DNA of 64,000 nucleotides from Mugilogobius chulae (Eukaryota): the NCBI GenBank assembly GCA_046056395.1, contig CM100124.1:623968-687967 (forward strand), given 5' to 3'. Each line of letters starts with the position of its first letter. Positions within the stretch are counted from its first letter, which is position 1. This document shows positions 11,595 to 45,968 of the stretch, piece by piece. The notes under the pieces were generated by a model. The model did not search any database and had not been told where the DNA came from. It saw only the letters and a list, made by a program, of their open reading frames with translations. A program made the translations under genes and the position numbers.

Positions 11595-11758
11595 ATGTCT
11601 AAGAAGTCAGGTCCTCGAGTCGTGGACATGGATCTCCCTGTGGACGCCTCCATCATCAGGATTCCTCCTCATCACTACATCCACGTCTGGACCAGAACAC
11701 CAACATCGCCCGCGTGGAGACCGGACCCGCTGACCTACATCAGACAGGACAATGAGAG
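11595..11758 (+). CDS. mvp: Major vault protein, first coding exon (MSKKSGPRVVDMDLPVDASIIRIPPHHYIH…TYIRQDNER)
   Basis: ATG at 11595 after the acceptor CTCCAG|TTC at 11577. It matches vertebrate MVP ([36 protein letters not shown]) and ends AG|GTGAGT. A 14-codon stretch (…[14 protein letters not shown]…) is out of frame relative to the conserved [14 protein letters not shown]. Two compensating 1-nt indels (cacgtCtgg and ccggAcccg) explain this. Confidence 0.8.
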
Positions 11759-12620
11759 GTGAGTTAGACCCAGTTTAGACCTGACTTAGACCTGACTTAG
11801 ACCCACGTTCTGGACCAGAACACCAACATCGCCCGCGTGGAGACCGGCCCGCTGACTTATATCAGACAAGACAATGAGAGGTGAGAAAGACCGGACCTAG
11901 ACCTGACTTAGACCTGGTTTAGACCCACCTACATCAGACAGGACAATGAGAGGTGAGAGAGACCGGACTTAGACCTGGTTTAGACCTGACTCAGACCTAC
12001 GTCCTCGACCAGAACACCAACATCGCCCGCGTGGAGACCGGCCCGCTGACTTATATCAGACAGGACAATGAGAGGTGAGAGAGACCGGACTTAGACCTGA
12101 CTTTAGACCTGGTTTAGACCCACCTACATCAGACAGGACAATGAGAGGTGAGAAAGACCGTACTTAGACCTGACTTAGACCTGGTTTAAACCCACCCACA
12201 TCAGACTGGACAATGAGAGGTGAGAGAGACCGTACTTAGACCTGATTAGACCTGGTTTAGACCCACCTACATCAGACAGGACAATGAGAGGTGAGAGAGA
12301 CCGACTTAGACCTGGTTTAGACCTGGTTTAAACCCACATCAGACAGGACAACGAGAGGTGAGAGAGACCCAGTTTAGACCTGACTTAGACCGCTAGACCT
12401 GGTTTAGACCCACTACATGGACATGAGAGTGAGAAGACCTGACTTAGACCTGGTTGACGGTTTAGACCGGTTTAGACCCACCTACATCGCAGGACAATGA
12501 GAGGTGAGAAAGACCTGACTTAGACCTGGTTTAGACCGAGTTTAAACCCACCTACATCAGACAGGACAATGAGAGGTGAGAAGACTCGACGTAGACCTGG
12601 TTTAGACCTGGTTTGCTATG
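11759..12620. repeat. Tandem array of ~12 copies of the exon-2 3' end plus its splice donor (…ACATCAGACAGGACAATGAGAG|GTGAGA…), embedded in the 11-mer satellite
   Basis: Two long copies (11805-11885, 12000-12080) encode [26 protein letters not shown]|GTGAG in the conserved frame. Shorter copies repeat …TACATCAGACAGGACAATGAGAGGTGAGA…. Confidence 0.85.
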
Positions 12621-13299
12621 ATAAAACTTTATTGTCCATATGAAAACGGAAATTTGCCTTACATATCTGCAACTGCTGCAAGTCCCACATACAACAGACT
12701 TCATTCATCAACATAAAAGATAAAAATACATGAATACATGCGGTAAGATCATGTGTTCTTCCTTTGGTTTAAAAATGTGATGGAACATGACACAAAAGAA
12801 TGTTTAGATTTATTCCTCCTGCTGCAGGGAAATCGAAAACGCCGTCCAGAGAGTAAGAACTCAAACTCATTGTTTAAAACATGATCTGTGTCTGGAGATC
12901 CTGTAGACCAGCCGTTCCCAAACTTTTTGGAGCCGTGCCCCCCCTATTGGCCCATAGATTGCCTGAGGCCCCTCAGTATTATTTCACACTCCATTCAAAG
13001 TTAGTTAGAATGTATATATTTCATATTAGCATTGGGAATCACTGCTGTACCAATGCCACTGTTTTCTTTGTTTGCAAATGAGTGAATGTGCTCTCAAGGG
13101 GAGGTCCTATTTTGGAGCAGATGTTCAGAAGCCTCTGAATCCTGTTCTTTTGTTTAACCGAAAGGCCACAGAACCAAGCCTTACTGCACTAAAGCAGCAG
13201 ACTTTGGATAGTGACTATATAGAACTGCTCCAAGATGTTTCTGTTGACTCCAAAAGAGCTGAGCCTCATCAGAAACACGATTCGTTGTTGCACAAATCT

Positions 13300-13480
13300 A
13301 CTTTCTTAGACCTGGTTTAGACCCACCTCACTCGACAGGACAAGGAGAGATGAGAAAGACCGGGTTTAGGCCTGGTTTAGACCTGGTTTAGACTTGACAT
13401 AGACACACCTTCATCAGACAGAACCACAAGAGGTGAAAAAACAGACTTAGACTTGGTTTAATCCTGGTTCAAGCCTGGTT
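13300..13480. repeat. Degenerate continuation of the donor-copy / 11-mer satellite array
   Basis: Repeats of CCTGGTTTAGAC… with GACAGGACAAGGAGAGATGAGAAAGACC. Confidence 0.6.
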
Positions 13481-13554
13481 TACACCTGGAGATGCATTTT
13501 TCTGTCTTCAGAGCCCGTTTCCTCCCGTGGCAAATTAGATTCATGTTTTGTAGT

Positions 13555-13941
13555 GCTATATTCATATTTTCATCTCTCGTGTCAGAGTCCTGTTTCCTCC
13601 CCTGTGGTCTTGTAGTGTTACATTTATATTTTCTCTCGTGTCAGAGTCCTGTTTCCTCCCCTGTGGTCTTGTTGTGTTATATTCAGTATTTCTCTCTTGT
13701 CAGAGTCCTGTTTTCTCCTCTGTGGTCTTGTAGTGTTACATTTATATTTTCTCTCGTGTCAGAGTCCTGTTTCCTCCTCTGTGGCCTTGTAGTGTTACAT
13801 TTATATTTTCTCTCGTGTCAGAGTCCTGTTTCCTCCTCTGTGGCCTTGTAGTGTTATATTTATATTTTCTCTCGTGTCAGAGGCCTGTTTCCTCCTCTGT
13901 AGTCTTGTAGTGTTACATTTATATTTTCTCTCTCGTGTCAG
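13555..13941. repeat. Tandem array (7 copies, ~60-bp unit) of the exon-3 acceptor site plus first ~16 nt of exon 3 (CTCTCGTGTCAG|AGTCCTGTTTCCTCC…)
   Basis: Each unit repeats a polypyrimidine tract, AG, then AGTCCTGTTTCCTCC. The final unit is the real acceptor. Confidence 0.85.
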
Positions 13942-14137
13942 AGTCCTGTTTCCTCCGCTGCGGATGCTGATGGTGCCTCCGCGTCACTACTGCGTCATCC
14001 TCAATCCCGTTGCCCGCGACGACAACGACCAGGTCCAGTTCGACCAATCAGGGCAGGCCAAGCTGAGACACGCCGACCAGGAGATCCGCCTCACCCAGGA
14101 CCCGTTCCCCCTGTACCCCGGGGAGGAGGTCCAGCAG
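13942..14137 (+). CDS. mvp: MVP coding exon (…[65 protein letters not shown])
   Basis: Matches human MVP [23 protein letters not shown]…[21 protein letters not shown]. Acceptor TCAG|, donor CAG|GTATGA. Phase-consistent with the flanking exons. Confidence 0.9.
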
Positions 14138-14235
14138 GTATGAACCCTCTGTAACCCTCTGTACCCCGCTGTGACCCGGGGAGGTACTGAACCCTCCTGT
14201 ACGTGTCTGAACCCTCCTGTACGTGTGTTTTTCAG

Positions 14236-14358
14236 GACGTGACGCCGCTGCAGATCGTCTTTCCCGACACGGCTCTGAGGCTCCAGGCTCTGCTCGAGTT
14301 CACCGACTCCAAAGGAACCAGAGGACGGCCGGAGACGAGTGGCTCTTCGAGGGACCAG
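14236..14358 (+). CDS. mvp: MVP coding exon (DVTPLQIVFPDTALRLQALLEFTDSKG…[frame change]…[11 protein letters not shown])
   Basis: Matches [42 protein letters not shown]. The 5' part and the 3' part ([12 protein letters not shown]) lie in different frames. That is consistent with one missing nucleotide near 14318-14326 (agaggacggccgg). Confidence 0.75.
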
Positions 14359-15306
14359 GTCTGACTGAGTCCTGCTTTAGTCTGGTTTTAGTCTTGTTTT
14401 AGGGCGTATTCAGACCTATAAAATTTGGTCCGATTTAAACGATCCAGAATTCGTTTTTTCTGACAGTTCAGACTTTTTTTTAGGTCTGAATAAAGACAAG
14501 CGAACTCTGATCCGAATCAAACGATCGGACCGAGACCACCTCTTCAGGTCGGTCTCGGGCTGATTGCAAACGGATTCTGGTGCGGATCACTTATGATCTG
14601 AATACAAACGGCCTCGATCCGAAACGAACACGAAACACATGCTCTTTTTGGACCTGACAAGCCACCGTCACAACGCACAGTCACTAAGCACAATTCTAAG
14701 CACAATTTCCTATCTACACGGTTTATTCTGTTGTCTAGATTTGTCTGAAAACATAAAGATATTTTCTCGCGTTTGTTTCCATCAAATAAAGCACTTTCAT
14801 TTTCAGTCTTAACCCTTCGTGTTTGCACAATGAAACCAAAACAGTAACACTTGGACAGTCTTCTTACCGTGATGGAGTAGAGACGAGGATCCTTACAAAC
14901 CAGATTATCAAATTGCCTCCTTTCCTTACTCGTTTAAATCTATATGTCCAGAAAAATAAGAAAGCAAAGACAGGCTACTGTTCCATTGTGAGCACTGATG
15001 CACCCAGTCCCGCTGGTACAGTGAGTAGTCCGCTGCGTTCACGTCAAATCCCAATGAAATTCATCCTCCCGACGAGCGCCAGGTCTGTGTTTAGTCCCGC
15101 ACAAACCCAGGCTCCTGCCGCCTCACCTCGGGCTCCACACGGGGCTGAAATCACCGCTACCTCTGGACTGGAGTCTGGGTTTGGACCAGTGTCTCGTCCT
15201 GTTTCACTGACAAACAGACCTAATTCTAGTCTATGACAGTAATCAGAAGGTCGTTTATGATAATGAACGAATAACGAGCTGCTACTTTACTATAAAGCCT
15301 AACTTT

Positions 15307-16489
15307 TAGGGCTGCACGATATTAAAAATGTATGCGATATGCGATATGGGCTCTGAGATTGCGATATTCGATATTTTTGCGATATTTATTTTTCACTTAA
15401 GAAATTCTCTGTGCATTTATTTTAAATCGTTATTACACTATTAAAACAATGTGCATATAAACGGCACACGTTCTGTGGCTTTGTAATTGCTTAATTATGT
15501 TATTAACTTATTTTTATTGAAGCGCTGTCATGTTTTAGGACGCTTTTTTCAAGGCTTAGTTGCTGGTTACTCTGAAAATCTGGCAACCCTAGTTGCTACC
15601 TTTACACACGTTTCACGTCTGTCTGTGAACTGAAGATGAGCTTGTGCGTCGTATTAAACGTGCCTGACAGGTCACAGTTTTATCACAACTATAGTTTTTG
15701 AGCGTTTTAAACCATCGCGAGTCACAAGAGTCGTTCTTTAGAGAAGAAGAAGACGAGAACGCAGCGCTAAACACACAGGTATTACACACACGCCTGCTAC
15801 ACACACATAATTACAGGTACACACGCAGGACTTACTTTTGAGATGATGCTGAGGCAGAGGAAAGTTGATCAGAGTGGCGTTTAATCCATTTGCTCCGTGG
15901 TTTATGGTTTGGTTGTGCTGTGTTGTTAGCAATAGATCCGTTGTTAGCAGCGCTAATATGCTAACTCACAGCTAACGTTAACCAAAGACATAACATGCTG
16001 GAATCAAAACGCCACAGCCTGTGAATTTTCCTTTGGTTTTCCGGATTCTAGCGGATCAGTTTGAGGAGTTTGAAGAGTAAAGAAACTTTACGGTGGTCGT
16101 CCTTGTGAGGTTGTTCGAAGCGGCTGCAGTTGTATTTCCCCTTAATGTAGCTTCTGTTTTGAGCCGTCGACATGATAGAAAAACACTTGTCTTGTAAATA
16201 GTCCAGAATTGTCGGGATGCAGTGGTTTTAGGAAAAGGAGTTTGCTGCTTTTGTCTGCGCTCATCTTTTCATCTGTTTACAGTAGTAGTTGCCATCATTC
16301 ACTGCGCCTCGCTCTAGCTTAGCTAAGCGGCAGCAGCAGATTTAAGGTGGCGCGCTTAAGGTGGCGCTGGAGTCAAACCACTCCGCACTAAAAACGGATG
16401 AATAATGCATAAAAAATGTAAGAAATTATCGCACGTGTCAATATCGCGATATCGATATTGATATTTTTTCGATATATTGTGCAGCCCTA
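15307..16489. mobile_element. hAT-like non-autonomous element (~1.18 kb) inserted in an MVP intron
   Basis: Terminal inverted repeats TAGGGCTGCACGATAT… / …ATATTGTGCAGCCCTA. Perfect 8-bp target-site duplication CTAACTTT at 15299-15306 and 16490-16497. Internal CGATAT-rich and (CAGCAG) sequence; no intact transposase ORF. Confidence 0.75.
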
Positions 16490-16792
16490 CTAACTTTTAT
16501 CCAAAAACACTTCTTCCGATTAGCACCGCCCCCTCGTCAGATTTGTCCAATGAGAGCGCTGGTTCTCACATACAGTATGTGTCTGTTTACGTTTTAAAGT
16601 CCACTCTACAGCAGCGCAGTGAGAGTATGCTCCGAACCAACTGAAAAAAATTAAGTCTGGATCGGATTTGGATCAAACAAGCGGACTTTTGCACTTTTCT
16701 GGTCTGAATACACCCTTAGCCCTGTTTTAGCCCTGTTTTAGTCCTGTTTTAGAGCTGGTTCAGTCGTGGTCTTGATCCGGTCTCTGTTCCAG

Positions 16793-16924
16793 GGACCTAT
16801 ATTCCGTGTAAGGAGGTGGTGGTGGTGGAGACGATCAAAGCCACGGTGATCAGAGAAAACCAGGCCATTCGACTGAGAGCGAGGAAGGAAGGAGTGGACC
16901 GGAGCGGAGTGAACCGAGTCACAG
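16793..16924 (+). CDS. mvp: MVP coding exon ([45 protein letters not shown])
   Basis: Matches [45 protein letters not shown]. Acceptor TTCCAG|, donor CAG|GTAAAA. Confidence 0.9.
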
Positions 16925-17004
16925 GTAAAACACGCTGAGAACACGCTGAGAACACGCTAAGAACACGCACACACGAGGGGTATAACGTGTCTGTGTCTCT
17001 GCAG

Positions 17005-17099
17005 GGGAAGAGTGGCTCGTGTCTAAAGTCGGAGCTTATCTGCCCGGAGCTCATGAAGAAGTTATCGACATCGTCAACGCCTTTATCCTCACGGACAAG
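17005..17099 (+). CDS. mvp: MVP coding exon ([31 protein letters not shown])
   Basis: Matches [31 protein letters not shown]. Acceptor TCTGCAG|, donor AAG|GTGAGT. Confidence 0.9.
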
Positions 17100-17215
17100 G
17101 TGAGTCTGGACCAGGACTGGACCAGGTCTGGACCAGGTCTGGACCAGGACTGGACCAGGTCTGGACCAGGACTGGACCAGGTCTGGACCAGGTCTGGACC
17201 AGGACTGAAAAAGGA
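17100..17215. repeat. 11-mer minisatellite (GGACCAGGACT / GGACCAGGTCT) starting at the splice donor
   Basis: Tandem 11-mers directly after GTGAGT. Confidence 0.8.
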
Positions 17216-18177
17216 GGACTAAAACAGGACTAAAACACAGAGCCGGATCTAACCTTTTGCTGGCCCTGAGCTAAAATCAGCTTTGGGGCTCTCCAATCTT
17301 AACCTTTATAAGTCAAGCCAAAGCAGCGTTTAACAAAGACTTTTTCATGATGATTTATAACGACACGCAAAGCGACAGACAAAAATAAGAGTAGACTAAA
17401 TCATATTTCTCAGAATAAAGAGATAATGTAAGATCCTGCCCCTGAAACATTTTCCTTAAATTTGGAGTGGGCTATTTTAGACCAACACACAACGCAGAAT
17501 TTTATTAATATACTGTATGATTGCACCTCATCAAGTTTGACTTAGTGTCAGTGTTTCCAAATGAGGCCCCAGCCCTGTCCCTCTCCCTGTGAGCTCCTCC
17601 TCTGTTCTCTCTTCATGTGCTCACGCTGGAACAGCTGATAAACTGCATCATCGCGCTGGACTTTTTGGACAGAAATACTGAAATTTGAAACTTTTTGGGG
17701 ACAAACAGCCTCATGTTTTATGTGGCTTTTAAAAGAATTCAACATAAATCAGCCGACGTTTAAGTACATCAGCTGTTTGTGTTTGTAGTTCAGTCAATAC
17801 TTGTCCTATTGACACTAATAAAGATTGTCTGAGAGCTTATGAGATATACGTAGAACAGGTATTTTTGTCCAAACTGTTCCCAGAGTCTTTGAGTTGGCGG
17901 TCTGTGCTGAGAATGATCAGACACCTGTTTCAGGAGAAGCGGCTGTGATCCTGTTGTGCCTCAAGAACAGAAGAGGGGAGGTCTATCACGTTTAAGCTTG
18001 TATGATTGGTCAAACAGGTATTATGTACAGCCCAAACCAGAGAGTGAAGCCAACAGACCTGATGACTGGACTGACATAAACTCAAAAAACTATCAGCGCT
18101 CAGAAGGCAGGGCCAAACACAGATGAGGGGCCCTAAGCAACTTGTGTAGTCTGCGTATAGGAAGGTCCGGCTCTGCT

Positions 18178-19112
18178 AAAGCAGGACTAAAGCAGGACTA
18201 AACAGGACTAAAACAGGACTTAAACAGGACTAAAACAGGACTTAAACAGGACTAAACCACGTCTAAAACAGGACTAAACCTGGACTGAAGCAGGACTAAA
18301 ACAGGACTAAAACAGGACTTAAACAGGACTAAAACAGGACTTAAACAGGACTAAACCACGTCTAAAACAGGACTAAACCTGGACTAAAAACAGGACTTAA
18401 ACAGGACTAAAACAGGACTTAAACAGGACTAAACCACGTCTAAAACAGGACTAAATCAGGACTAAAACAGGACTTAAACAGGACTAAACCACGTCTAAAA
18501 CAGGATTAAACCTGGACTAAACAGGACTTAAACAGGACTAAACCACGTCTAAAACAGGACTAAATCAGGACTAAAACAGGACTTAAACAGGACTAAAACA
18601 GGACTTAAACAGGACTAAACCATGTCTAAAACAGGACTAAACCTGGACTAAAACAGGACTTAAACAGGACTAAACCACGTCTAAAACAGGACTAAATCAG
18701 GACTAAAACAGGACTTAAACAGGACTAAAACAGGACTTAAACAGGACTAACCACGTCTAAAACAGGACTAAACCTGGACTAAAACAGGACTTAAACAGGA
18801 CTAAAACAGGACTTAAACAGGACTAAACCTGGACTAAAACAGGACTTAAACAGGACTAAAACAGGACTTAAACAGGACTTAAACAGGACTAAACAGGACT
18901 TAAACAGGACTAAACCTGGACTAAAACAGGACTAAAACAGGACTTAAACAGGACTTAAACAGGACTAAACCACGTCTAAAACAGGACTAAACCTGGACTA
19001 AAACAGGACTAAAACAGGACTAAAACAGGATGAAAATGAGACTAAAACAGGACTATATCAGAACTAAAACAAGACTAAAACAGGACTTAAACAGAACTAA
19101 ACCAGTTCTCTC
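18178..19112. repeat. Minisatellite of the 11-mer family, reverse-complement orientation (AAACAGGACTAAAACAGGACTT…), ~0.9 kb, ending ~10 nt before the exon acceptor
   Basis: Tandem units visible. It is the reverse complement of the GTCCTGTTTTAGTCCTG units seen at 16700-16760. Confidence 0.9.
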
Positions 19113-19124
19113 TCTGGTCCGTAG

Positions 19125-19361
19125 AGGGCGCTGCACGTGCGCGCGCTCCGGCCCTTTAAGGACGCGGGGGGGCGTGACCGTCGTACGGGGGAGGAGTGGC
19201 TGGTCACCATGGCGGACCGAGAGGCTCACATCCCGTCGGTGTCGGAGGAGGTGGTCGGCGTCGTCACGGTAACGACCCTGAGCAGCCGCCAGTACTGCGT
19301 CATCCTGGACCCGGTGGACCAGGCCGGCAACCCGCAGCTGGGCAAGAAGAGGGTCGTCAAG
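19125..19361 (+). CDS. mvp: MVP coding exon ([79 protein letters not shown])
   Basis: Matches [79 protein letters not shown]. Acceptor CCGTAG|, donor AAG|GTAACG. Confidence 0.9.
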
Positions 19362-19784
19362 GTAACGGGGAACTGTCACTCAACCTGTTACACCTGTCAT
19401 TATGCACCTGTCAACCACGCTGCATACAAAGGCTTCGTCTTTTTTCTTGAAATTTGTATGACTGTAATTGCACAACTTTTTATTTAATTTTATTCTCGAA
19501 AAAAAATAAGACTTTTTTGCTATGACTTTATTCTCAAAAAAATCTCGCATTTTTGGGGAGTTTTTTCACTTTATTGTCATATAACTACAACTTTTTAAAA
19601 CTTCAACTTTATTCTCAACTTGCAAGAATGATCTCAAAATGTTTCAAGTTCATTCTCGTAGCCCACGCTTTTTTTTTTTTTCTTGGCTCTAATACTCCTA
19701 ATGTTCGTCTGTGTGATTTCCTTCTTTCTTCTCTCTTTGCTTCTCTGCTGTTCTCCTTTGTCTTTCTTCTTCAGGGAGAGAAGT

Positions 19785-22700
19785 TATTCTTCCTTCAGAG
19801 ACAGATGTTTCCTCCTAAAACTTTGCTCCTCTGATGTTCTCGTCTCTTCTTCAGGGAGAGATGTTTCGTCCCTCTCTTTGCTCCTCTGATGTTCTCGTCT
19901 CTTCTTCAGGGAGAGATGTTTCGTCCTCTCTTTGCTCCTCTGATGTTCTCGTCTCTTCTTCAGGGAGAGATGTTTGGTCCTCTCTTTGCTCCTCTGATGT
20001 TCTCGTCTCTTCTTCAGGGAGAGATGTTTCGTCCTCTCTTTGCTCCTCTGATGTTCTCGTCTCTTCTTCAGGGAGAGATGTTTCGTCCTCTCTTTGCTCC
20101 TCTGATGTTCTCGTCTCTTCTTCAGGGAGAGATGTTTCGTCCTCTCTTGCTCCTCTGATGTTCTCGTCTCTTCTTTCAGGGAGAGATGTTTCGTCCCTCT
20201 CTTTACTTCCTTGAAGTGGCTCTCTGATTCTGTTCTCGTCTCTTCTTCAGGGAGAGATGTTTCGTCCTCTCTTGCTCCTCTGATGTTCTCGTCTCTTCTT
20301 CAGGGAGAGATGTTTCGTCCTCTCTTTGCTCCTCTGATGTTCTCGTCTCTTCTTCAGGGAGAGATGTTTCGTCCTCTCTTTGCTCCTCTGATGTTCTCGT
20401 CTCTTCTTCAGGGAGAGATGTTTCGTCCTCTCTTTGCTCCTCTGATGTTCTCGTCTCTTCTTCAGGGAGAGATGTTTCGTCCTCTCTTGTCCTCTGATGT
20501 TTCGTTCTTCTTCAGGGAAGATGTTTGTCCTCTCTTTGCTCCTCTGATGTTCTCGTCTCTTCTTCAGGGAGAGATGTTTGGTCCTCTCTTTGCTCCTCTG
20601 ATGTTCTCGTCTCTTCTTCAGGGAGAGATGTTTGGTCCTCTCTTTGCTCCTCTGATGTTTCGTCTCTTCTTCAGGGAGAGATGTTTGGTCCTCTCTTTGC
20701 TCCTCTGATGTTCTCGTCTCTTCTTCAGAGAGAGATGTTTGGTCCTCTCTTTGCTCCTCTGATGTTCTCGTCTCTTCTTCAGAGAGAGATGTTTCGTCCT
20801 CTCTTTGCTCCTCTGATGTTCTCGTCTCTTCTTCAGAGAGAGATTTCGTCCTCTCTTTGCTCCTCTGATGTTCTCGTCTCTTCTTCAGGGAGAGATGTTT
20901 CGTCCTCTCTTTGCTCCTCTGATGTTCTCGTCTCTTCTTCAGGGAGAGATGTTTCGTCCTCTCTTTGCTCCTCTGATGTTCTCGTCTCTTCTTCAGGGAG
21001 AGATGTTTGGTCCTCTCTTTGCTCCTCTGATGTTCTCGTCTCTTCTTCAGGGAGAGATGTTTGGTCCTCTCTTTGCTCCTCTGATGTTCTCGTCTCTTCT
21101 TCAGGGAGAGATGTTTCGTCCTCTCTTTGCTCCTCTGATGTTCTCGTCTCTTCTTCAGGGAGAGATGTTTCGTCCTCTCTTTGCTCCTCTGATGTTCTCG
21201 TCTCTTCTTCAGAGAGAGATGTTTCGTCCTCTCTTTGCTCCTCTGATGTTCTCGTCTCTTTTTCAGGGAGAGATGTTTCGTCCTCTCTTTGCTCCTCTGA
21301 TGTTCTCGTCTCTTCTTCAGGGAGAGATGTTTGGTCCTCTCTTTGCTCCTCTGATGTTCTCGTCTCTTCTTCAGGGAGAGATGTTTCGTCCTCTCTTTGC
21401 TCCTCTGATGTTCTCGTCTCTTCTTCAGGGAGAGATGTTTCGTCCTCTCTTTGCTCCTCCTGATGTTCTCGTCTCTTCTTCAGGGAGAGATGTTTCGTCC
21501 TCTCTTTGCTCCTCTGATGTTCTCGTCTCTTCTTCAGGAGAGATGTTTCGTCCTCTCTTTGCTCCTCTGATGTTCTCGTCTCTTCCTCAGAGAGAGATGT
21601 TTCGTCCTCTCTTTGCTCCTCTGATGTTTCTCGTCTCTTCTTCAGGGAGAGATGTTTCGTCCTCTCTTTGCTCCTCTGATGTTCTCGTCTTCTTCAGGAA
21701 GAGATGTTTCGTCCTCTCTTTGCTCCTCTGATGTTCTCGTCTCTTCTTCAGGGAGAGATGTTTCGTCCTCTCTTTGCTCCTCTGATGTTCTCGTCTCTTC
21801 TTCAGGGAGAGATGTTTCGTCCTCTCTTTGCTCCTCTGATGTTCTCGTCTCTTCTTCAGGGAGAGATGTTTCGTCCTCTCTTTGCTCCTCTGATGTTCTC
21901 GTCTCTTCTTCAGGGAGAGATGTTTCGTCCTCTTTGCTCCTCTGATGTTCTCGTCTCTTCTTCAGGAGAGATGTTTCGTCCTCTCTTTGCTCCTCTGATG
22001 TTCTCGTCTCTTCTTCAGGAGAGATGTTTCGTCCTCTCTTTGCTCCTCTGATGTTCTCGTCTCTTCTTCAGGGAGAGATGTTTCGTCCTCTCTTTGCTCC
22101 TCTGATGTTCTCGTCTCTTCTTCAGGGAGAGATGTTTCGTCCTCTCTTTGCTCCTCTGATGTTCTCGTCTCTTCTTCAGGGAGAGATGTTTCGTCCTCTC
22201 TTTGCTCCTCTGATGTTCTCGTCTCTTCTTCAGGAGAGATGTTTCGTCCTCTCTTTGCTCCTCTGATGTTCTCGTCTCTTCTTCAGGAGAGATGTTTCGT
22301 CCTCTCTTTGCTCCTCTGATGTTCTCGTCTCTTCTTCAGGGAGATGTTTCCTCTCTTTGCTCCTCGATGTTCTCGTCTCTTCTTCAGAGAGAGATTTTCG
22401 TCCTCTCTTTGCTCCTCTGATGTTCTCGTCTCTTCTTCAGGGAGAGATGTTTCGTCCTCTCTTTGCTCCTCTGATGTTGTCGTCTCTTCTTCAGGGAGAG
22501 ATGTTTGGTCCTCTCTTTGCTCCTCTGATGTTCTCGTCTCTTCTTCAGGGAGAGATGTTTCGTCCTCTCTTTGCTCCTCTGATGTTCTCGTCTCTTCTTC
22601 AGGGAGAGATGTTTCGTCCTCTCTTTGCTCCTCTGATGTTCTCGTCTCTTCTTCAGGGAGAGATGTTTCGTCCTCTCTTTGCTCCTCTGATGTTCTCGTC

Positions 22701-22965
22701 TCTTCTTCAGGGAGAGATGTTTCGTCCTCTCTTTGCTCCTCTGATGTTCTCGTCTCTTCTTCAGGGAGAGATGTTTCGTCCTCTCTTTGCTCCTCTGATG
22801 TTCTCGTCTCTTCTTCAGGGAGAGATGTTTGGTCCTCTCTTTGCTCCTCTGATGTTCTCGTCTCTTCTTCAGGGAGAGATGTTTCGTCCTCTCTTTGCTC
22901 CTCTGATGTTCTCGTCTCTTCTTCAGAGAGAGATGTTTCGTCCTCTCTTTGCTCCTCTGATGTAG
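19785..22965. repeat. 3.2-kb tandem array (~60 copies, 52-bp unit) duplicating the last ~52 nt of the intron, i.e. the 3' splice acceptor of the next exon: …TCTCGTCTCTTCTTCAG|GGAGAGATGTTTCGTCC…
   Basis: The unit closely matches the genuine acceptor region at 23041-23100 (GGGAGATGTTTCGTCCCCTCGTTGCTCCTTTAATGTCCTTGTCTTCCTTCTTCAG|GGGGAAAAG). All the long ORF-track ORFs at 19834-22985 are read through this repeat. Confidence 0.9.
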
Positions 22966-23095
22966 ACTGCTATTTTAGTTTGTAACTTTTACTAAACAAA
23001 AAGGCTTTGTACATGACAGTAACACACAGGCACACTTAAGGGGAGATGTTTCGTCCCCTCGTTGCTCCTTTAATGTCCTTGTCTTCCTTCTTCAG

Positions 23096-23221
23096 GGGGA
23101 AAAGTCGTTCTTCCTTCAGCCCGGAGAACGTCTGGAGAACGGGATCCAGGACGTGTTTGTTCTGTCTGAGGAGGAAGGTTTGGTGCTGAGAGCTGTGGAG
23201 GCGTTCGACGACGTGGACCCG
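23096..23221 (+). CDS. mvp: MVP coding exon ([42 protein letters not shown])
   Basis: Matches [34 protein letters not shown]…. Acceptor CTTCAG|, donor CCG|GTAAGA. Confidence 0.9.
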
Positions 23222-23720
23222 GTAAGAACCAGGACTGAACCTGGACTAAACCTGGATCTGAACCAGGACTAAACCAGGTAGGAACCAGGGACTGAACCTG
23301 GACTATACCTGGACTTGAACTGAGACTTGAACCAGGAATGAACCAGGTAAGAACCAAGACTGAACCTGGACTTGAACCAGAGAGTGAACCAGGACTGAAC
23401 CAAGACTAAACCCGGTAAGAACCAGGACTGGACCTGGACTAAACCTGGACTTGAACTGAGACTAAACAAGGTAAGGACCAGGACTGAAACCAAGACTAAA
23501 TCAAGATCTGAACCAAGACCTGGGCCAAGACGTGAACAGAGACTGAACCTGGACTGAACCAGGACTGAACCAGGTCTGAACCAAGACTTGAACCAGGACT
23601 AAACCTAGACTTGAACCAGAGAGTGAACCAGGACTAAACTAAGACCTGAACCAAGACCAAACCAGGTAAGAACCAGGACTGAACCTGGACTATACCTGGT
23701 AAGAACGAGGACTAGAGTGG
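23222..23720. repeat. 11-mer family minisatellite (GAACCAGGACTGAACCTGGACTAAACC…) beginning at the splice donor
   Basis: Tandem units directly after GTAAGA. Confidence 0.85.
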
Positions 23721-24267
23721 GACTGAAAAACCCTTGACATTCAAAGTTTTCTTTTCTCTACTTTTTGTAATTTTTACTCTGATTGACCTTTGATCTTTTT
23801 CTGTTTTTTGGCTCTACTCGGCCCTGTTCTGCTCGGCTCTGGTTTAAAATGTTTCCACAGCGAGTTTTCAGCGTTTTCCCGGTTCTAACGATGCCAAACA
23901 GGGACTAAGCTGTTAAAAAAGCACGTTTCCACTGGCTTTACTCGGCCCCACTCGGCTCAGTCTGGCTCTGATTGGAGCTCCTGGATTATCACCAGTTTCC
24001 AGTGATATCCGAACATTCTAAAAGGCAAAGGAGACACAACCAGGCCAAACAGAGTCGAGCAGAGCCGAGCAGGGCTAGTGGAAATGTGCCAATAGATATA
24101 TTTTGGCATATTTTGTTGTATTAATCTAATCGCTCAAGCAAAGTCACAGAAGTGGTAAAAATATGACACAAAAGGACACTTTTTATATTCACTATAGTTC
24201 ACTTTTAAAACAGTCAGGTTAATTAAGACTTCTCTCTGGAGCAGGACTATTCAACTCTACTCCCTCT

Positions 24268-24953
24268 AGGGCCGTGTTTTTATAAGTCTGTGTGAGGCTG
24301 GGCAAGAAACCGAAAAATCCCAAGATTGAGATCGAATCGTCAATTATTTGGTTGTAGGTTTTGAATCTTTAGAGCGAAATCTGTGGTTTTGAGGAAAGTC
24401 AAGCTTTGAGGAAGAATATTGTGGAGCGGAGTTATTGTGGAGTGGTGTTCCTCAGTGAACTGCTTTACTTTGGAGGACGGTCCGTGGTAAAAGTTGAATA
24501 GGCCTGCTGCAGAGTTCTGTAGAAGCTCATGTCTTAGGGTCCTGTGGTCCTCACAGAGATCTGCATCAGGGGGAAGTTTTTCAGTCCTGTTCCCACTGGA
24601 CCCGGTCAAAGAACCCTCCAAACAGTTTGAGTTTGAATGAGGCTTACAAGACCTCTTAGGCCTCCCGTACACTGACTGTGAGGAGAGTTGGTTCAGGACA
24701 CGTGCAGGTTTCTTGCAAAGTAACTTGTTCACTAACTCCAATCCACTGCAGTCCAGGCTTGCCCAGGGTTGGGCCATCTGGGAAAAAATATAATCACAAA
24801 ACAATAGAAAAATGTCTTTCTGGACATAAGCAAAAACTACACATTTTATTGACAAATGATTGTTTTTCAATTCTTCAATTCTAAACTCATCACCAAATAA
24901 TTGCCACTTCGATTCGATACAATCCTGATTTTTGGATTAATGGCCCAGCCCTA
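24268..24953. mobile_element. DNA transposon remnant with long (~80 bp) terminal inverted repeats (TAGGGC…GGCTGGGC…ATCGAATCG…CAATTATTTGG)
   Basis: 5' …CTAGGGCCGTG…GGCTGGGCAAGAAACCGAAAAATC…ATCGAATCGTCAATTATTTGG. The reverse complement of the 3' end is CTAGGGCTGGGCCATTAATCCAAAAATCAGGATTGTATCGAATCGAAGTGGCAATTATTTGG. An internal 176-aa minus-strand ORF has no recognisable domain. Confidence 0.5.
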
Positions 24954-26638
24954 GATTTGCTGTAAGTGTATTGATACCTGAGAGACCGTTCATATACTGA
25001 CATGAAATCTGCATCAGACCGCTGCAGTCTGCAATAAAGATTAACTCTACGGATTCTTTCCTCTGACCTGCGCGAGTCCTGGACCTGCACTCCTACTGTT
25101 TATTGGTTTTAAGCACTTTCTAAGTCCTGCGAGAGCTGGGCTGGTACCGACCTGGACTAAACTCTCACTCAGTGTACGGCAGGAAGCAAGTCTTTCTGAA
25201 ACATGAATCAGAATAAAAAGTGTTTGTCAGAAAGTAACTGTAACTTTGTCAAATGAAGTTCAGTTTGTGCTCATGTGAGTGGTTTCTGACACAGGCGGCG
25301 ATTCATGTTTTTTTGGGTGAGTGGCCAAAATAATATACGCGTACGTGCACGAGCATAAAGTGCACGCACACCATTTGCACTTGTCTCTTCTTCGGCGCTT
25401 TCATTTAGTTTCTTTTCTACCTGAAACTAACAGGCTTCTGACTCTGACCGGCTCATTCTTTTCCCAGTGAACAGAATCCATTCAGTATAAAGCCCACAGA
25501 GCTCCGGGTCTGTCCTGTCTCAGCGCAGCTCTACTGCACCGGGCGCTACAAACAGGACCAGTGCAGTTCGTCACTTCATACATCTTTTGTTCGGTTCTGA
25601 ATCACATCGCAACTCAACATTCTCGTCTCCCACTTGATTTCCGGCGCTGCTTTAAAGCACATTTGTGAATTAAACTGTGATCTCACAGGGACAGAGCAGC
25701 AGCACAACGGCTCAGACTGAGTCTAATGACAGCGCTCTGAGAGGAGAGATGCCGTATGAGCGCTTATATTCAGCTTATATTCACACATACAGATGAAGGA
25801 AAGCAAGAGGAGAGTGTGAAAGATGCTGTATGACCGAATAAATGCATCACTCAGACATTTAGATAATGAACATTTGGATAATGAAAGCAGGACAAATTGG
25901 CCTGGGTGCTCAGACATTCGAGTGGGAGCTTGAGCCCCACGGCATCATGGGATCAGCTCCTATGTTTCTGATACTGTCTGAGGATTGACCAAGCGGCTGC
26001 ACCTCACAGGCGTCAGTCTTATCTTTAGCGGAGCAGCAGGGCACATGAACGACTTTTCTGGAGCTTTGACCTCTCGCTCCACCTGATTACTGAGAGAACA
26101 TACAGCTCACGACCAGTCAGGACCGGAGGTGTTGTGACCTCGGGGTTTTACTCAGAGTCTCGTGGGAACATTCTCCCGGTGCAGGTCTCTCCTCACAGCT
26201 GCAGGTGTGTGTTTGCTCAGGTTTATGATGGAGGAATGCCGTCCTGACACTCCTCCATTATACACCCTCACATCCATCACAAGCTCAGACTTTGACAGAA
26301 GGTGCAGCAGATATCAGTGTGTTTGTCCAAGACGTGTCTGCGTTTGTGTGAAAAGCAGGGCCCGGGACACGAACACGCCTCTCCTGAACACGCCTCGGAC
26401 ACGCCGCCACTGCAGACCTCACGGGACGAGGAGTATGAAGACAGATGTAGCCTTAAGTATCTTTGTGCCATGAGGCGGATCGGCCTGTGGAGCGAGCAGA
26501 GTGAACAGGTCAAATATGAACAAAGAACAGTCCACTTCAACACAAGAGAAAGGCGGAGACGGAGGTATGAGGGAGACAGAGGGGTGAGGAAGGATCGGCC
26601 TGTAGAGTGAGCAGAGCAAACAGGTAAATCTGAACAAA

Positions 26639-27496
26639 GGTCAGGGTTCCCATGCGCCCTGGAAAACCTGGAAATTGATTAGCCCATTTACCAGTCATGA
26701 AAAACACCTAGAAAATGAGAAAAATGTCATGGAAAATAAAATATATTCCTGGAAAATTATGAAATATATATAATAATAATAATACAATTTATAACAGTGC
26801 GCAAACTAATGAACCCGATGTAAAAGACCTTATGTGTAAGCTATAGTTAACTAATTGTACTAATGCAAAACTGTTTAGCAGTAGGATCTGCAAACCCATA
26901 TTGCAAAAAGTTACATCCAAAATCTAATGTGGGAGGACCTCCAGACCCGCCTCACACCCCATTAGGGTTTTTTCATCTGGCTCTTTATTTATGTTTTAAC
27001 TGGAAGCTTATATTTTTATAAAATAGGCTCAGCATTAGTTTGATTTTAGTTCAACAGCCTGAGGTAAAAAGTGTCAGAAAACATGTATATATTATAATTT
27101 TATTCAGCCACTGGAGCCTGTAAAAAGCATCAGGTTGCACCAAAATTTACTTTTTTTTTTTTTTTTTTTAATCTCAGGGGGAGGACCCCCAGACCCCCTG
27201 CTCATATTTTTCTCCCTGCGGCACTGCCAAAATACTGAAACTGTGATGCTCAAGAAAGACGAAAAAGAGGCTGTCAAAGTGAACCGCAGCTTTGCAGATT
27301 GCTCCTGTCTGTCCAGATCAAAGTTTGACTGACAACTGAAGACTGTGTTACACTTTGATTGTCAGAAATGTGGACGATTGGGCTGCCACAACTTGGCAAA
27401 ACAGGCTAAATATTGGTGATGTCGTTGTCGTGATTACCTAAAATCCCTGCCAATGTCCTAGAAATGTCCTAGAAATTGTTTTTGGGATATTAGTGG
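26639..27496. mobile_element. MITE-like element with terminal inverted repeat CAGGGTTCCCA…, inserted into a locally duplicated sequence
   Basis: Terminal inverted repeats CAGGGTTCCCATGCGCCCTGG… / …TAGTGGGAACCCTG. The flanks 26460-26640 and 27500-27640 are ~85% identical copies of each other. Confidence 0.5.
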
Positions 27497-28192
27497 GAAC
27501 CCTGTAGGATAGTCCACCTCAACACGAGAGACAGAGAGACGGAGGTATGAGGGAGACAGACACAGACAGAGACAGAGAGGTGAGGAAGGATCGGCGCAAA
27601 CAGGTCAAACTGAACAAAGACCAGTCCATCTGAACATGACAGAGCTATGAGGGAGGAGGAGGGTGTGAGTCCAGGTCAGACCAGCTTCAGTCTCACAATA
27701 CACTTCTGATCTGAACAAGAATGTGTTCATCTGGTTAGTCTGGTTTGTCTGAGTGAAGGTTATATAATTTAATCATGAGTTAAAGAGGGCTGTAGTTGTT
27801 TAGTTGATTAATCGCTCGATTGAACAGAGATGACTGTCCTGTGGCTCTAGAGAAAACCTCCCATTGTGGGCGGGGCTTAAAAGACACACTTTCCAAATGG
27901 AACAATAAATACATTAAGCCTTTATAAGTCATCAGTTCTTTCTTTTCTTCATAATTATTTTTGTTGCTGTTTATTTTTTTTGTTCAGACTGTAAACAAAC
28001 CGTCTGGTGAGGTCCAGCTGGAGTCTCTTGAGTTTATGAATTTACAAATATCACCACAATCTATCGGGATGCACACATCAATAAAACTCACTAACTTCAA
28101 AACCTCTTTCCCAAGTGAGACCTGCAAAATGAAAAATGTAAAAATGTTGTCGTGTAGAGCAGACAGTAAAAATATAATCAAATCAAGATAAC

Positions 28193-29256
28193 TATAGGGG
28201 TTATGCAGTAACGTTTTTCCGGTCTCAAATAGACATAGGCCAGAGGCGTTGTGGGTCGGGGGGGACTCTGAAAGTCTGGCAACCGAGAGCGGTGCGTGTG
28301 TTCGTTTCTTCCCGACCCACAGCACCTCTGCCCGGTCTCATGAGCACGGCGAGTCTCGGTATGTGCGCGGAGCTTCATCAAAAGATGACAAAAGAGTACT
28401 TTTTTGGAGTAAACAACTGTGTCACTATGGCCAGGGGTGTCGGACTGGGGGGTAAATGGTGCTAGTTTCCCCGGGGCCCAGGACAGGAAAGGGCCCCCAA
28501 AAGCATTTTGTTTGTGAAATACATTGTTCCTCTAAATGTAAGTATTAGTGATATCAGAGAACTCCATCTCTCCTATAAAACGTGGACACAGACTTTGGCT
28601 AAAGAAAATGACTGAAAAAAGAGGAATATTAGTTGGCTAAAATTTTAACAAATACAGCAGCTACAAATATAATATTATGAGCAAGAGTTTGCAGTTTTCA
28701 GTGAACAAATAGCCAGGGTTTGGCACAATGTCAATAAATGTCACAACTTCAACATTATAAAACATCCAAAATGTCACAGGGATTTTCTGAGTGTGATTTT
28801 GGCATCATTTAAACAAGTTAGCTTAAAACATGTTAGTAAAGAGTAAGATTAAAACATTTTATTTTTTTCTCATTTGAGTGAAGGCAGTGCTTCCAACTCA
28901 ATGGTTTTGTCACAAAAACACATAAATGTCTTGTTTTTTAGGCGTTTATGGCAATAAAAATCTTGAAAGGTAGCATTAAAAAGCATTTAATTTATATTAT
29001 ATTATGTGTGGGTTGTAGAAATTAAATAAATTGGCTGTATATGAATATTGTAGCAAGAAATAAAACCCAAATGAATAGAAAAATTACGAGAGACAACTAA
29101 ATAATTAAAACACAAGATCATGTATTAGGGGCCCATCACTAAGTTTGCACCTGGGGCCCAGAATTCGGTGCTACGCCCCTGACTATGGCAACCACGCCAC
29201 CGGATGTAACGACCTAGGTCTATTTGAGGCCCGGAAGACTTTAACGCATAACCCCT
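28193..29256. mobile_element. ~1.06-kb element with terminal inverted repeat ATAGGGGTTATGCRKTAAMG…
   Basis: The 5' end is ATAGGGGTTATGCAGTAACGTTTTTCCGGTCTCAAATAGAC. The reverse complement of the 3' end is CAATAGGGGTTATGCGTTAAAGTCTTCCGGGCCTCAAATAGAC. The internal motif …CCCAGAATTCGGTGCTRCGCCCCTG… recurs at 39820-39860. Confidence 0.55.
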
Positions 29257-29864
29257 ATTGCTGAGTTTAAACTCTTATTGGCACATTAAGAAATTTAAAG
29301 TAAAGCTCACCCCCTGAACTCCACCCACAAACTCCTTTCAAACACAGCAAACCCATTGAAAAGCTTTGAGCAGTGTGATTGGATTGAAAGCAGGTGTCTG
29401 TATCTAGTTTTGAATGGACAATACACGCTGAGGTCACATAGAGTCTATAGAGCCGACATGAGAGACACAGACAGTTTGTGACTATTTTGACCTGAAACTT
29501 TGCACAGTTTAAACTAAAAATACCAAAAACCGTAGTTTATGCAGAAGCTTCTGGACACGGGACCAGAGAATTTGATTGGATTTGAGGAAAGACATGGACT
29601 AAAATCTTATTGATGGAGAAAAGCTCACTGACGTTTGAAGCCTGCACATTCATCTTTATAATAAACATTTAGGACAAATATATGACTTTTCAGTTGTTTT
29701 GTACTTTGGGTTTTGTTTCGACTGAGTTTCATTGTCAAACTTCTGTTTTTATTATCCTTTCTTTTTTATGCTTTTTGTTCCTTTGGCTTTTGTTCTCTTC
29801 AATTAACTTTATTAACGGCACATCTCCTCAACAATCTCCATGGAAACTGTGAGGTATCCATGGA

Positions 29865-30110
29865 CCAATCAGAGCCAGACACGACAGTTTAGTCCTGATT
29901 GGCTCGAGTAAAAACCGGGTAGAACCAGGGCCAATCAGAGCAGAGCCTTTTGAGCCAGGACAATCAGAGCAGAGGCTTTTACACCAGGACCAATCAGAGC
30001 AGAGCCGAGTAGAACCAGGACCAATCAGAGCAGAGCCTTTTGAGCCAGGACCAATCAGAGCAGAGCCTTTTTAACCAGAACCAATCAGAGCAGAGCCGTG
30101 GACATTTAAA
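29865..30110. repeat. Minisatellite (~33-bp unit x 7) of CCAAT-box-containing units (GGACCAATCAGAGCAGAGCC…), immediately upstream of MVP exon at 30137
   Basis: Repeated GACCAATCAGAGCAGAGCC[TTTTGAGCCA]. CCAATCAG is the NF-Y / Y-box consensus. Confidence 0.8.
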
Positions 30111-30136
30111 TAACCGTGTGTGTTTTTGTGTCGGAG

Positions 30137-30360
30137 CAGTTTGAAGACGAAGAGGACGAAGAGGAGGAGCAGGAGCAGGAAGGGGGCGGGGCCAAGCGCA
30201 GACGCCGCGCCGGGATCCAGCGTCGCCCCGGAGACCGCTGGATGCTGCGCGGGCCCATCGAGTACGTGCCCCCCGCTGCGTGGAGGTGGTACTGCGACGC
30301 GACGCCATTCCTCTGGACGAGAACGAAGGGATCTACGTCCGGGACATGAAGACGGGAAAG
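30137..30360 (+). CDS. mvp: MVP coding exon ([48 protein letters not shown][frameshift][27 protein letters not shown])
   Basis: Matches …[45 protein letters not shown]. The conserved reading jumps -1 at ~30279 (gctgcg^gtggaggtg). The ORF track confirms that the upstream frame runs on as …[13 protein letters not shown]… to a TGA at 30347. A 223-nt alternative start is possible at 30140. Donor AAG|GTCAGT. Confidence 0.8.
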
Positions 30361-31690
30361 GTCAGTGTTTAGACATGATTTAAAAGTCCTTTAAAAGTCC
30401 ACCAAATGTACACCTGACGAGTTAATCCAATCACAACTATCTTTATTTACAAAGCTTTTACAAGAACATTTTACATAGCAGACTTACAGGACAGATTTAT
30501 TTAAAAGGGAACTCCCCAGAAGCTATTTAAGCTTAATAACATACTAATATCTAGAAGTGACTTGTTAGAGGCCCCCTATTGGCCCCCCTATTGGCCCCAA
30601 GATTGCCCAAGACCCCCCAATAATCACTCTATTAAAAATAATTTAGAATGTATTTTTTCTCAGAATAAAATGCAAAAACAGTGGCTGTGGACTTAGTCTG
30701 GATTTAAAAATTAATAACATAAAGTTTTCAAACCCAGTTTTCTGTCATGCTTGTTGTGTGGAGCGCTCCTGAGGCCCCCAGGGGGCCCCGGACCCCACTT
30801 TGGGAATCACTGGTCTAATTTATCCATTTAATATAACCTTATTTTACACCACTAGATGGCATTCACGTGAAATCAAATGTCATGTGGTCAACTTCTGTCA
30901 ATAAAACTATAAAATCAAGATCTAGACTATGCATAAACAGGCTTTATAATAATATTGATATTTTTTGTTAATATTTAATACAATAAAACCAGACTGGGAG
31001 CCAAACATGGACAAACATGGATATATTCATGTTATATTGTTATAACAACATACATATGTGCCAAAATGTTGTGTTTTTTTCTATTAAAGCGGCACTGTGT
31101 AAAAAAATAAAAATAAATAAAGTGATCCCACTTTTGAACACCAGGGGGAGCCTTTCCAATGCATTTTGCCTATCTACCCTGCTGCCATCTAGCGTCAATA
31201 TTCAACATTCCGGCCCGTAATAAAACATTTCAAATAAGTATAAATGTGTCACAATTGATGTGGATTGGTTAACAGTGCTCTCTTAAGTATTCATGTTGTA
31301 AAGAATAAATATGATTTAAATGTTTGTGGACTATATGTGATCATTAAAATTCCTCTCAATCTTACACAGTACAGCCCCTTTAAAAAAACACTGTTGCCAA
31401 AATGTTAGCCAGCACACTGTTGTTATTTTTTTTGTTTTTACGATTATATTGTGACTGATAATCACGATTATCGATTAACCGAATAATCTTCACATCCCTG
31501 GGGACTAATTTGTATGAACAGACACTCTCTCTGTCTTTCTTTTCCCATCTGCGTCGTGTGTAAAAGCTCACGGTAGGCTTTAGATAAAAAAAGGTACAGC
31601 TCCCCGATAACTGAAGAGGGAGGAGACAGATCGCTCAAAATACAACATGTTCTTGATTCCCTTGCCCTTTACTCTGTCTCTCTGTTTCAG

Positions 31691-31925
31691 GTTCGCGCGG
31701 TGATCGGACACACCTACATGCTGACCCAGGACGAGGAGCTTTGGAACAAGATTCTCCCGGCCAACGTGGAGGCTCTGCTGGCGTCTCCTCTGGACCCTCT
31801 GGCCGATCGCTCCGACAGGAACCGGGACGCGCAGCAGCTTCCGCGAGACAAAACCCGCGTGGTGTCGTACCGATGCCTCACAACGCCGCTGTGGCAGGTG
31901 TACGACTACAGGAGAAGAAAGCACG
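31691..31925 (+). CDS. mvp: MVP coding exon ([61 protein letters not shown]…; the 3' end is frame-disrupted)
   Basis: Matches [30 protein letters not shown]…DPLADR…[27 protein letters not shown]. The last ~50 nt (cgaTGCCTCACAACGCCGCTGTGGCAGGTGTACGACTACAGGAGAAGAAAGCACG|GTGGGT) differ from the conserved frame by three 1-nt indels, net -1. The downstream tandem copies read …[17 protein letters not shown]|GT in the correct frame. Coordinates within 31681-31741 are ±1 nt, because my reading of that displayed line and the ORF track disagree by one position. Confidence 0.75.
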
Positions 31926-34331: not shown

Positions 34332-34529
34332 AGTGGTTTTCGGCCCGGAGCTGGTCATGCTCGGTCCGGACGAACAGTTCACGGTTCTCTCTCTCTCCGG
34401 GGACAAACCGAAGCGAGCCAACGTGATCAAAGCCGTGTGTCTGCTGCTCGGACCGGACTTCTGCACCGACGTCATCACCATAGAAACGGCCGACCACGCC
34501 CGCCTCCAGCTGCAGCTTGCCTACAACTG
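34332..34529 (+). CDS. mvp: MVP coding exon ([66 protein letters not shown])
   Basis: Near-identical to human [66 protein letters not shown]. Acceptor TTACAG|; the donor is the non-canonical-looking TG|GTACTC. Confidence 0.9.
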
Positions 34530-36480: not shown

Positions 36481-36524
36481 AGAGATTCTCAAAATAACCA
36501 TGTGACCGTTTTTTGTGTTTTCAG

Positions 36525-38920: not shown

Positions 38921-39039
38921 GTGAGCGCGCACAAACAACACGCACAAAAACACGCACACAAACAAGCAGACGAAACAAGAGAATCACAGGACACAACACG
39001 CACAAAACACGAATACACAGACACCGCACGAGGACAAAC

Positions 39040-45933: not shown

Positions 45934-45968
<35 letters not shown>

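Follow-up and report, generated by a model that had tools for sequence, protein, structure and literature searches.

Probable consensus errors break the reading frame of a constrained goby mvp gene, some of whose exon-intron junctions lie within minisatellites

Small insertions and deletions (indels) that break a conserved reading frame are familiar from two quite different sources. Residual errors of this kind persist in long-read assemblies, and the authors of a PacBio-only genome assembly for the round goby warn of small-indel and homopolymer problems in reading frames (PMC6988351). A unitary (that is, unprocessed) pseudogene likewise keeps its intron-exon structure while its frame is broken by small indels. 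A third described system concerns not the frame but the ends of exons: intron 7 of human F7 contains a 37-bp variable number tandem repeat whose first unit spans the exon-7 boundary, such that the exon end and the authentic 5' splice site are followed by identical pseudo 5' splice sites, which are silent, only the most upstream site being used (PMC1557585). Here these systems are compared with the mvp gene, encoding the major vault protein (MVP), within a 64,000-nucleotide (nt) stretch of DNA from Mugilogobius chulae (contig CM100124.1, positions 623,968 to 687,967 of the forward strand). This whole stretch is termed the window, and positions given below are those of the window unless another locus is named.

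The mvp locus resembles the residual-error case in that single-base length changes break conserved frames, at a density (seven in 2.6 kb altogether, and two in 2.3 kb when the arrays are set aside) that is plausible for such assemblies; it differs in that its long homopolymers (G7 and C6) are correct and in that most of the errors would fall within the first unit of a tandem array, and the window need not come from the assembly of PMC6988351. With a unitary pseudogene it shares both the retained intron-exon structure and the broken frame, but its constraint is not relaxed, it has neither nonsense substitutions nor lost splice sites, and its indels are all 1 nt long and clustered. The F7-like layout--a first unit with the exon end and authentic 5' splice site, then further copies of that site--recurs in the arrays that follow exons 1, 9, 12 and 15. 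Unlike in F7, however, eight of the 30 junctions of this one gene are affected, including 3' splice-site arrays (before exons 2, 7, 10 and 14) that are absent from F7; there are up to about 20 copies in the window and up to 46 in Boleophthalmus; and the pattern occurs at differing junctions in four goby species. In F7 the downstream sites are silent; in goby mvp their silence is a prediction.

Comparison with orthologues indicates that the locus is most likely the single functional mvp of a goby (Gobiiformes), an ordinary constrained orthologue, and that its seven frame disruptions are most likely sequencing or assembly consensus errors--all of them artefacts rather than mutations in the animal.

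The mvp gene and its frame disruptions

The plus strand of the window carries a complete 16-exon goby MVP gene, which extends from an ATG at 11595 to a TAG stop codon at 41554-41556. Exon finding was guided by a human MVP sequence (the matching region being about 11.6-41.6 kb on the plus strand); this sequence served as an exon-finding guide only, and every conclusion is built on database orthologues. Frame-by-frame reading and inspection of splice sites place the exons, all on the plus strand, at 11595..11758 (exon 1), 13942..14137 (exon 2), 14236..14358 (exon 3), 16793-16924, 17005-17099, 19125-19361 and 23096-23221 (exons 4-7), 30140..30360 (exon 8), 31691..31925 (exon 9), 34332-34529, 35608-35752, 35831-36042 and 36525-36641 (exons 10-13), and 38524-38650, 38732-38920 and 41428-41556 (exons 14-16, the last including the stop codon), and show that all 30 intron borders are canonical AG/GT. 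Exon 2 is intact, and exons 4-7 and 10-16 are all in frame. The limits of exon 1 follow from its translation, from nucleotide alignment to four goby orthologues and from orthologue N-termini. The start codon of mvp is probably ATG 11595 (MSKKSGPRVVD-MDLP...), in agreement with other teleost MVPs, whose N-termini read MSRK/MSKK, rather than the internal ATG at 11628 that an earlier note on this DNA had taken as the start and from which some of the present analyses (assembly of the coding sequence through dN/dS, the ratio of non-synonymous to synonymous substitution rates) also began.

Once its frame is corrected, the encoded protein has the full MVP architecture, which comprises vault repeat domains, a shoulder domain and a cap-helix region in about 860-890 amino acids: it matches the Pfam families Vault, Vault_2, Vault_3, Vault_4 and MVP_shoulder above their cut-offs. 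It also aligns end to end with solved vault structures (residues 4-853 of MVP chains, E = 0). Its best matches are goby MVPs, with 89-92% identity over 98-100% of its length (Boleophthalmus, 91%; Periophthalmus, 92%, partial; Eucyclogobius and Knipowitschia, 89%), followed by non-goby percomorph MVPs at 85-88%. All 16 exons correspond one-to-one with those of the Boleophthalmus, Eucyclogobius, Knipowitschia, Micropterus and Anabas loci, which identifies the gene as an orthologue of teleost mvp, and other gobies have a single MVP.

Exons 1, 3, 8 and 9 were aligned at the nucleotide level to their orthologues from three goby genomes and one goby transcript (L001-L004). These alignments show that the conserved frame of MVP is broken by exactly seven 1-nt indels, namely five deletions and two insertions; the earlier note had reported four disrupted regions, all of which are present where it had placed them and which are thereby resolved into individual changes (a caret below marks the site of a missing base). 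In exon 1, a C is missing at 11686/11687 (CACGT^CTGG, where the orthologues have CACGTCCTGG) and one extra base lies within 11725-11729 (CCGGACCCGCTG); these two form a compensating pair that scrambles the 14 codons between them, and on this point the alignment agrees entirely with what had been noticed before. In exon 3, for which a net change of -1 had been reported, an A is missing at 14319/14320 (AA to A, ACC^AGAGG), the orthologues having ACCAAGAGG, which codes for TKRTAGDEW. Exon 8 lacks one base at about 30279-30281 (GCTGC^GTGGAG, GG to G), and the shifted frame runs to a TGA at 30347-30349; the deletion and the stop codon had both been recognized, but the exon starts at 30140, not at 30137. 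Exon 9 contains three indels with a net effect of -1, likewise as previously described: one base is absent at about 31872-31874 (TACCG^ATGCC), a G is in excess at 31893/31894, and a further base is absent after 31912 (CAG^GAG). The first two of these compensate each other, and the third is uncompensated.

Because the seven indels sum to -3, the frame returns after exon 9; the raw spliced translation is interrupted by many stop codons in the stretch between exons 3 and 9. The conserved readings that a restored frame would show include CACGTCCTGG, ACCAAGAGG and GCTGCGGTGGAG. The sequences of exons 3 and 8 are unique in the window, whereas the damaged ends of exons 1 and 9 are the first units of tandem arrays. 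It had been claimed that neighbouring copies of these segments keep the conserved frame. For exon 1, copies 2 and 3 are real, but copy 3 reads YVLDQ... rather than HVLDQ...; for exon 9, the copies read (R)... (RHNAAV...), that is, without the P that had been attributed to them. Two further 1-nt length differences occur in the intron part of the first exon-9 unit: TT for TTT at 31940-41 and GG for G at 31953-54.

Constraint, indel pattern and the origin of the disruptions

The corrected coding sequence has evolved as those of functional genes have. Its pairwise dN/dS relative to four gobies is 0.075-0.114, compared with 0.066-0.113 for functional goby pairs. On the terminal branch leading to the window there are 42 synonymous and 13 non-synonymous changes, when counts are limited to codons at which the three other gobies agree; the resulting ratio (N/S) of 0.31 compares with 0.21, 0.28 and 0.28 for three functional lineages, from which it does not differ significantly (Fisher p = 0.71), while neutrality is rejected (P = 9e-15). 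At residues that do not vary among 16 other teleosts, the window has 8 lineage-specific replacements, 2 of which stem from a guessed residue at the exon-3 site, and the other gobies have 9-10. Comparison with the goby orthologues revealed no nonsense substitutions, lost splice sites or larger deletions in the corrected 16-exon coding sequence, and the exon lengths equal those of the orthologues except for the 1-nt changes. In other words, the locus has the frame-disrupting lesions of a pseudogene but neither the relaxed constraint nor the other decay.

The number, length and placement of the indels are likewise informative. All seven (nine with the intron pair) are exactly 1 nt long, whereas about half of the singleton indels in the arrays of the window are longer, so that the chance of such a pattern is P = 0.007 for seven indels and P = 0.002 for nine. 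They are biased towards deletion (5 versus 2) and concentrated at array edges: the array-embedded exon ends, which comprise about 300 nt, hold five of the seven, and the remaining 2.3 kb hold two (p = 3e-4). Within the exon-9 array, the first unit is set apart from the five other full units by four 1-nt length changes (two exonic, two intronic) and by no substitutions, and those five units show no indels among themselves. Length changes that occur without substitutions and that are confined to the edge of an array point to a consensus or polishing problem rather than to a diverging repeat unit.

These findings bear directly on whether the frameshifts could be real, the locus being either a very young unitary pseudogene or a null allele of this individual, possibly compensated by a second mvp locus. 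Such a reading takes at face value the seven breaks and the many stops that they create in the raw coding sequence from exon 3 to exon 9, and independent data from the same species, none having been found, do not contradict them; moreover, MVP-null mice are viable, so that loss of the gene can be tolerated and a real null allele is conceivable a priori. However, the window branch shows no excess of non-synonymous changes, and under the observed constraint the neutral substitutions that followed any loss of function could number about 3 and no more than about 15. In vertebrate neutral DNA one indel arises per 5-20 substitutions; if this ratio is assumed, the probability of at least seven indels is 2e-10 to 0.04. 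For no more than about 15 substitutions and seven indels that are without exception 1 nt long, it is put at about 1e-7 to 0.04. A gene that had been dead long enough to acquire seven independent indels should carry neutral substitutions too, and none of that signal is present. With constraint unrelaxed, no stops by substitution, all splice sites intact, indels that are clustered and uniformly 1 nt long, and a single MVP in other gobies, a pseudogene or null allele is quite improbable. A mixed origin, in which arrays act as mutational hot spots (through slippage, unequal exchange or replacement by decayed units) so that the exon-1 and exon-9 indels are real and those in exons 3 and 8 are errors, or the reverse, would account for the concentration of five indels in array-embedded exon ends and accords with the many indels that separate array units in the window (15 one-base indels in 560 nt at 12055-12614, for example); selection could also favour compensating changes such as the exon-1 pair and the first exon-9 pair. 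Yet the residues lost to the scrambled stretches do not vary in any of the fish examined, one of these conserved stretches ending in (T/I)GP, and the third exon-9 indel is uncompensated. Nor does the first exon-9 unit, with its lack of substitutions relative to its sister units, look like a diverged or decayed unit, while the first exon-1 copy retains the orthologous ACC TAC codons, unlike the other long copies, and thus has not been replaced by them. A mixed origin is accordingly rated as improbable as well.

It is also conceivable that the gene is expressed despite real indels, its frame being restored by alternative splicing that uses array copies, by editing or by ribosomal frameshifting. 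Every array unit does carry splice-site-like sequence, and some have both an AG and a GT, such as ctttag/TACG...CACG/gtgggt (slashes here and below mark junctions). If a downstream unit were spliced in, however, intron sequence would be gained or conserved residues would be lost; codons for V-P are missing from the exon-9 copies; an exon-10 mini-exon would be 25 nt long; and the indels in exons 3 and 8 have no copy to draw on. The splicing-in of an intact array copy in place of a damaged exon end, considered as a candidate in its own right, was rejected on these grounds, that is, because the needed codons are absent or out-of-frame sequence is added, and because exons 3 and 8 are without copies. 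No vertebrate mechanism is known that repairs five separate sites, and rescue at the level of RNA or translation seems extremely improbable. Altogether, there is a small chance that at least some of the indels are real, whether through a null allele or through array-driven mutation.

By contrast, consensus errors, which are most likely the source of all seven indels, could have arisen in two ways. Five of the indels, together with the two in the adjoining intron, lie in the first units of those arrays whose start is within exon 1 or exon 9. At the edges of such arrays read alignment and polishing are unreliable, since reads match more than one copy and copy number may differ between the two haplotypes. 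The changes in exon 3 (AA to A) and exon 8 (GG to G) would be isolated length errors of short runs within GC-rich unique sequence. The intact-looking neighbouring copies are real: they belong to minisatellites that were founded by a duplication across an exon-intron junction. Of these copies, only the one contiguous with the exon body would be expected in spliced mRNA, with the others being intronic passengers. The earlier note had itself leaned towards assembly error, and that lean is supported by the unrelaxed constraint, the lack of stops, the intact splice sites and the clustering of 1-nt indels at array edges. Its view that the question is undecidable from sequence alone was too pessimistic, inasmuch as orthologue comparison makes a pseudogene improbable.

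Several observations weigh against a technical origin, as does the tolerance of MVP loss in mice. Although five or six of the seven indels can be read as changes in run length, neither homopolymer context nor CpG context is significantly enriched at the indels (the baselines being 43% of coding positions in runs of at least 2 nt and 38%, respectively). The G7, the C6 and six 5-nt runs of the coding sequence are all in frame, and the indels occur in runs of 1-3 nt, which is not the classical long-homopolymer pattern; the argument from short homopolymers, as advanced previously, is therefore weak by itself. An error rate that affects exons 1, 3, 8 and 9 and spares the other twelve of 16 exons is uneven. 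Singleton variants in the tandem arrays of the window comprise 51 one-base indels and 74 substitutions in 16.9 kb, which corresponds to 0.30% per base for the indels versus 0.27% in the coding sequence; this profile fails to separate the window from Boleophthalmus, where the ratio is similar and the coding sequence is intact. Protein searches with the full-length, exon-8 and exon-9 sequences returned nothing above 92% identity, and no reads, cDNA or proteins of the same species were found in the databases searched; exact look-ups of 12 open reading frames of the window, frame-shifted ones included, were all negative. Finally, the window contains no other conserved multi-exon gene that might show like errors, its flanks holding just one scavenger-receptor cysteine-rich (SRCR) exon and fragments of long interspersed nuclear elements (LINEs).

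If the disruptions are indeed errors, they present an annotation hazard: an annotation pipeline applied to this assembly would take mvp for a pseudogene, divide the gene or predict an incorrect protein, and like errors are to be expected wherever an exon end belongs to a tandem array. The comparison used here--terminal-branch synonymous and non-synonymous counts set against the number, length and placement of indels--provides a recipe for distinguishing pseudogenes from errors that does not require reads.

Minisatellites at exon-intron junctions and other features of the window

Of the eight affected junctions, four lie at the 3' end of an exon (1, 9, 12 and 15) and four at the 5' end of an exon (2, 7, 10 and 14). 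Each is embedded in a minisatellite whose units hold the exon edge together with its splice site, with 1-19 extra copies per junction (a copy being counted where at least 10 nt are covered on both sides of the junction); all of these arrays lie on the plus strand.

Among the arrays at 3' exon ends, that of exon 1 (11681..12614) consists of three long units (122 nt, of which 76 nt are exonic) and eight short ones (about 72 nt, of which 26 nt are exonic); each carries GAGAG/GTGAG. Two of its units, at 12361-12505, have dense small deletions when compared with adjacent units (for example, ACATGGACATGAGA versus ACATCAGACAGGACAATGAGAGGT), which looks like locally poor consensus quality. The exon-9 array (31878..32430) has about 6 units of 81 nt, each consisting of the last 48 nt of the exon, the 5' splice site and 33 nt of intron, and the real exon end is its unit 1. 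For exon 12, the final 78 nt together with the 5' splice site recur as three additional copies at 35966..36486, with GA-rich repeats between them; for exon 15, the final 41 nt and the 5' splice site have just one additional copy, 98.5% identical, at 39038..39104.

At the 5' ends of exons, a 59-nt array of about 7 units (13548..13960) repeats the 3' splice site of intron 1 and the first 22 nt of exon 2, which thereby recur 6 times upstream of that exon. A 54-nt array of about 59 units (19758..22963) goes back to the exon-7 start with its 3' splice site (TCTTCTTCAG/GG...) and has diverged from the exon. Arrays with units of 51 and 62 nt (33381..34356; 9-11 units) contain the 3' splice site of intron 9 and the first 25 nt of exon 10, and in a 45-nt array of about 20 units (37644..38536) each unit includes the opening 13 nt of exon 14 and the 3' splice site before them.

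The exon-derived parts of the array copies (that is, copies of 11733-11758, 13942-13963, 31878-31925, 34332-34356, 35965-36042 and 38524-38536) were compared with the corresponding exon ends. Varying sites are biased to third codon positions, with 6/3/14 sites at the first, second and third positions, plus 0/0/3 for exon 9. The bias likely arose because the copies were spun off from a constrained exon at different times. Coding selection upon the array copies themselves was considered and rejected: non-synonymous and stop variants are also present, and the third-position bias is otherwise explicable.

Near the start of the gene, a pseudo-start copy (ATGTCTAAGAAGTCAG) at 11461 is followed by three copies of a 28-nt unit (region 11461-11627). 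Boleophthalmus has a related 28-nt array of about 67 units (L001 8103-9977) and, in addition, a whole extra copy of exon 1 upstream (L001 8839-9008), which carries a frame shift of its own.

Apart from the junction arrays, the window contains an 11-nt satellite family (AGTCCTGGTTT / TAGACCTGGTT and variants) in both orientations, at 8507-8953, 17104-17207, 18176-19105, 23226-23713, 36646-36755, 43693-44329, 47700-53753 and 55814-55968. Its tracts often start about 5 nt past a 5' splice site or stop immediately ahead of a 3' splice site. Downstream of mvp, double units of 23 nt make up an array of 6 kb belonging to the same family, and related units occur in the Boleophthalmus and Eucyclogobius loci (L001 and L002). 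Also downstream of mvp is an imperfect (CT)n tract of about 535 nt (45647-46181) with strong strand asymmetry. On the minus strand, LINE-like endonuclease and reverse-transcriptase fragments extend over several reading frames at 57117-59911, for which no Pfam match was found at E <= 0.01 and whose frame changes may reflect either decay or assembly errors, and an SRCR-domain exon (63585-63998) includes about 4 copies of an in-frame 42-nt unit (63744-63915, 99% identical) that add SELQGAPFTQDSAV repeats. No match to a tRNA or to an Rfam family was found in the window.

Junction-spanning arrays across gobies

Arrays that span exon-intron junctions are present in independent assemblies of three other gobies, partly at junctions shared with the window and partly at different ones. 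Boleophthalmus mvp has five array-bearing junctions, including the one with 46 extra copies, which repeats the end of exon 10 with its 5' splice site; Eucyclogobius has two such junctions and Knipowitschia one, while the genes of the non-goby percomorphs Micropterus and Anabas show single weak junction-copy matches at most. Tandem repeats, which have inflated the introns of goby mvp, make up 31%, 79%, 48% and 12% of the mvp gene span in the four gobies versus 6% and 1% in Micropterus and Anabas. Arrays tend to lie close to exons: 11 of 12 in the window, 22 of 25 in Boleophthalmus and 10 of 13 in Eucyclogobius are within 50 nt of an exon boundary (the regions concerned in the latter two being L001 10175-42190 and L002 3177-17305). 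Judging from exon coordinates, most of the corresponding mvp introns in Anabas are 80-400 nt long.

The simplest explanation for these arrays would be that minisatellites have arisen and grown at a high rate in the goby lineage, within introns of small ancestral length. Within a short intron a duplication of 50-120 nt would almost inevitably capture an exon edge; duplications inside an exon or of a whole exon would be removed by selection, whereas those spanning a junction would be harmless as long as the site beside the exon body is used. The need to make a conserved protein suggests that only the splice site adjoining the exon body is in fact used and that the pseudo-sites are silent. The pattern would then be a passive outcome of minisatellite birth. 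Alternatively, there may be a lineage-specific, junction-associated duplication process, which could operate across the genome and could turn exon ends into genuine mutational hot spots; this is possible, though doubtful.

A literature search for junction-spanning arrays in gobies or teleosts found no description of them, the closest precedent found being intron 7 of human F7. The junction-duplicating minisatellites of goby mvp thus appear to be fairly unusual and could serve to study how the spliceosome chooses among identical tandem sites. If a junction-associated process does exist, then gobies would constitute a natural, large-scale version of the F7 splice-site-scanning experiment.

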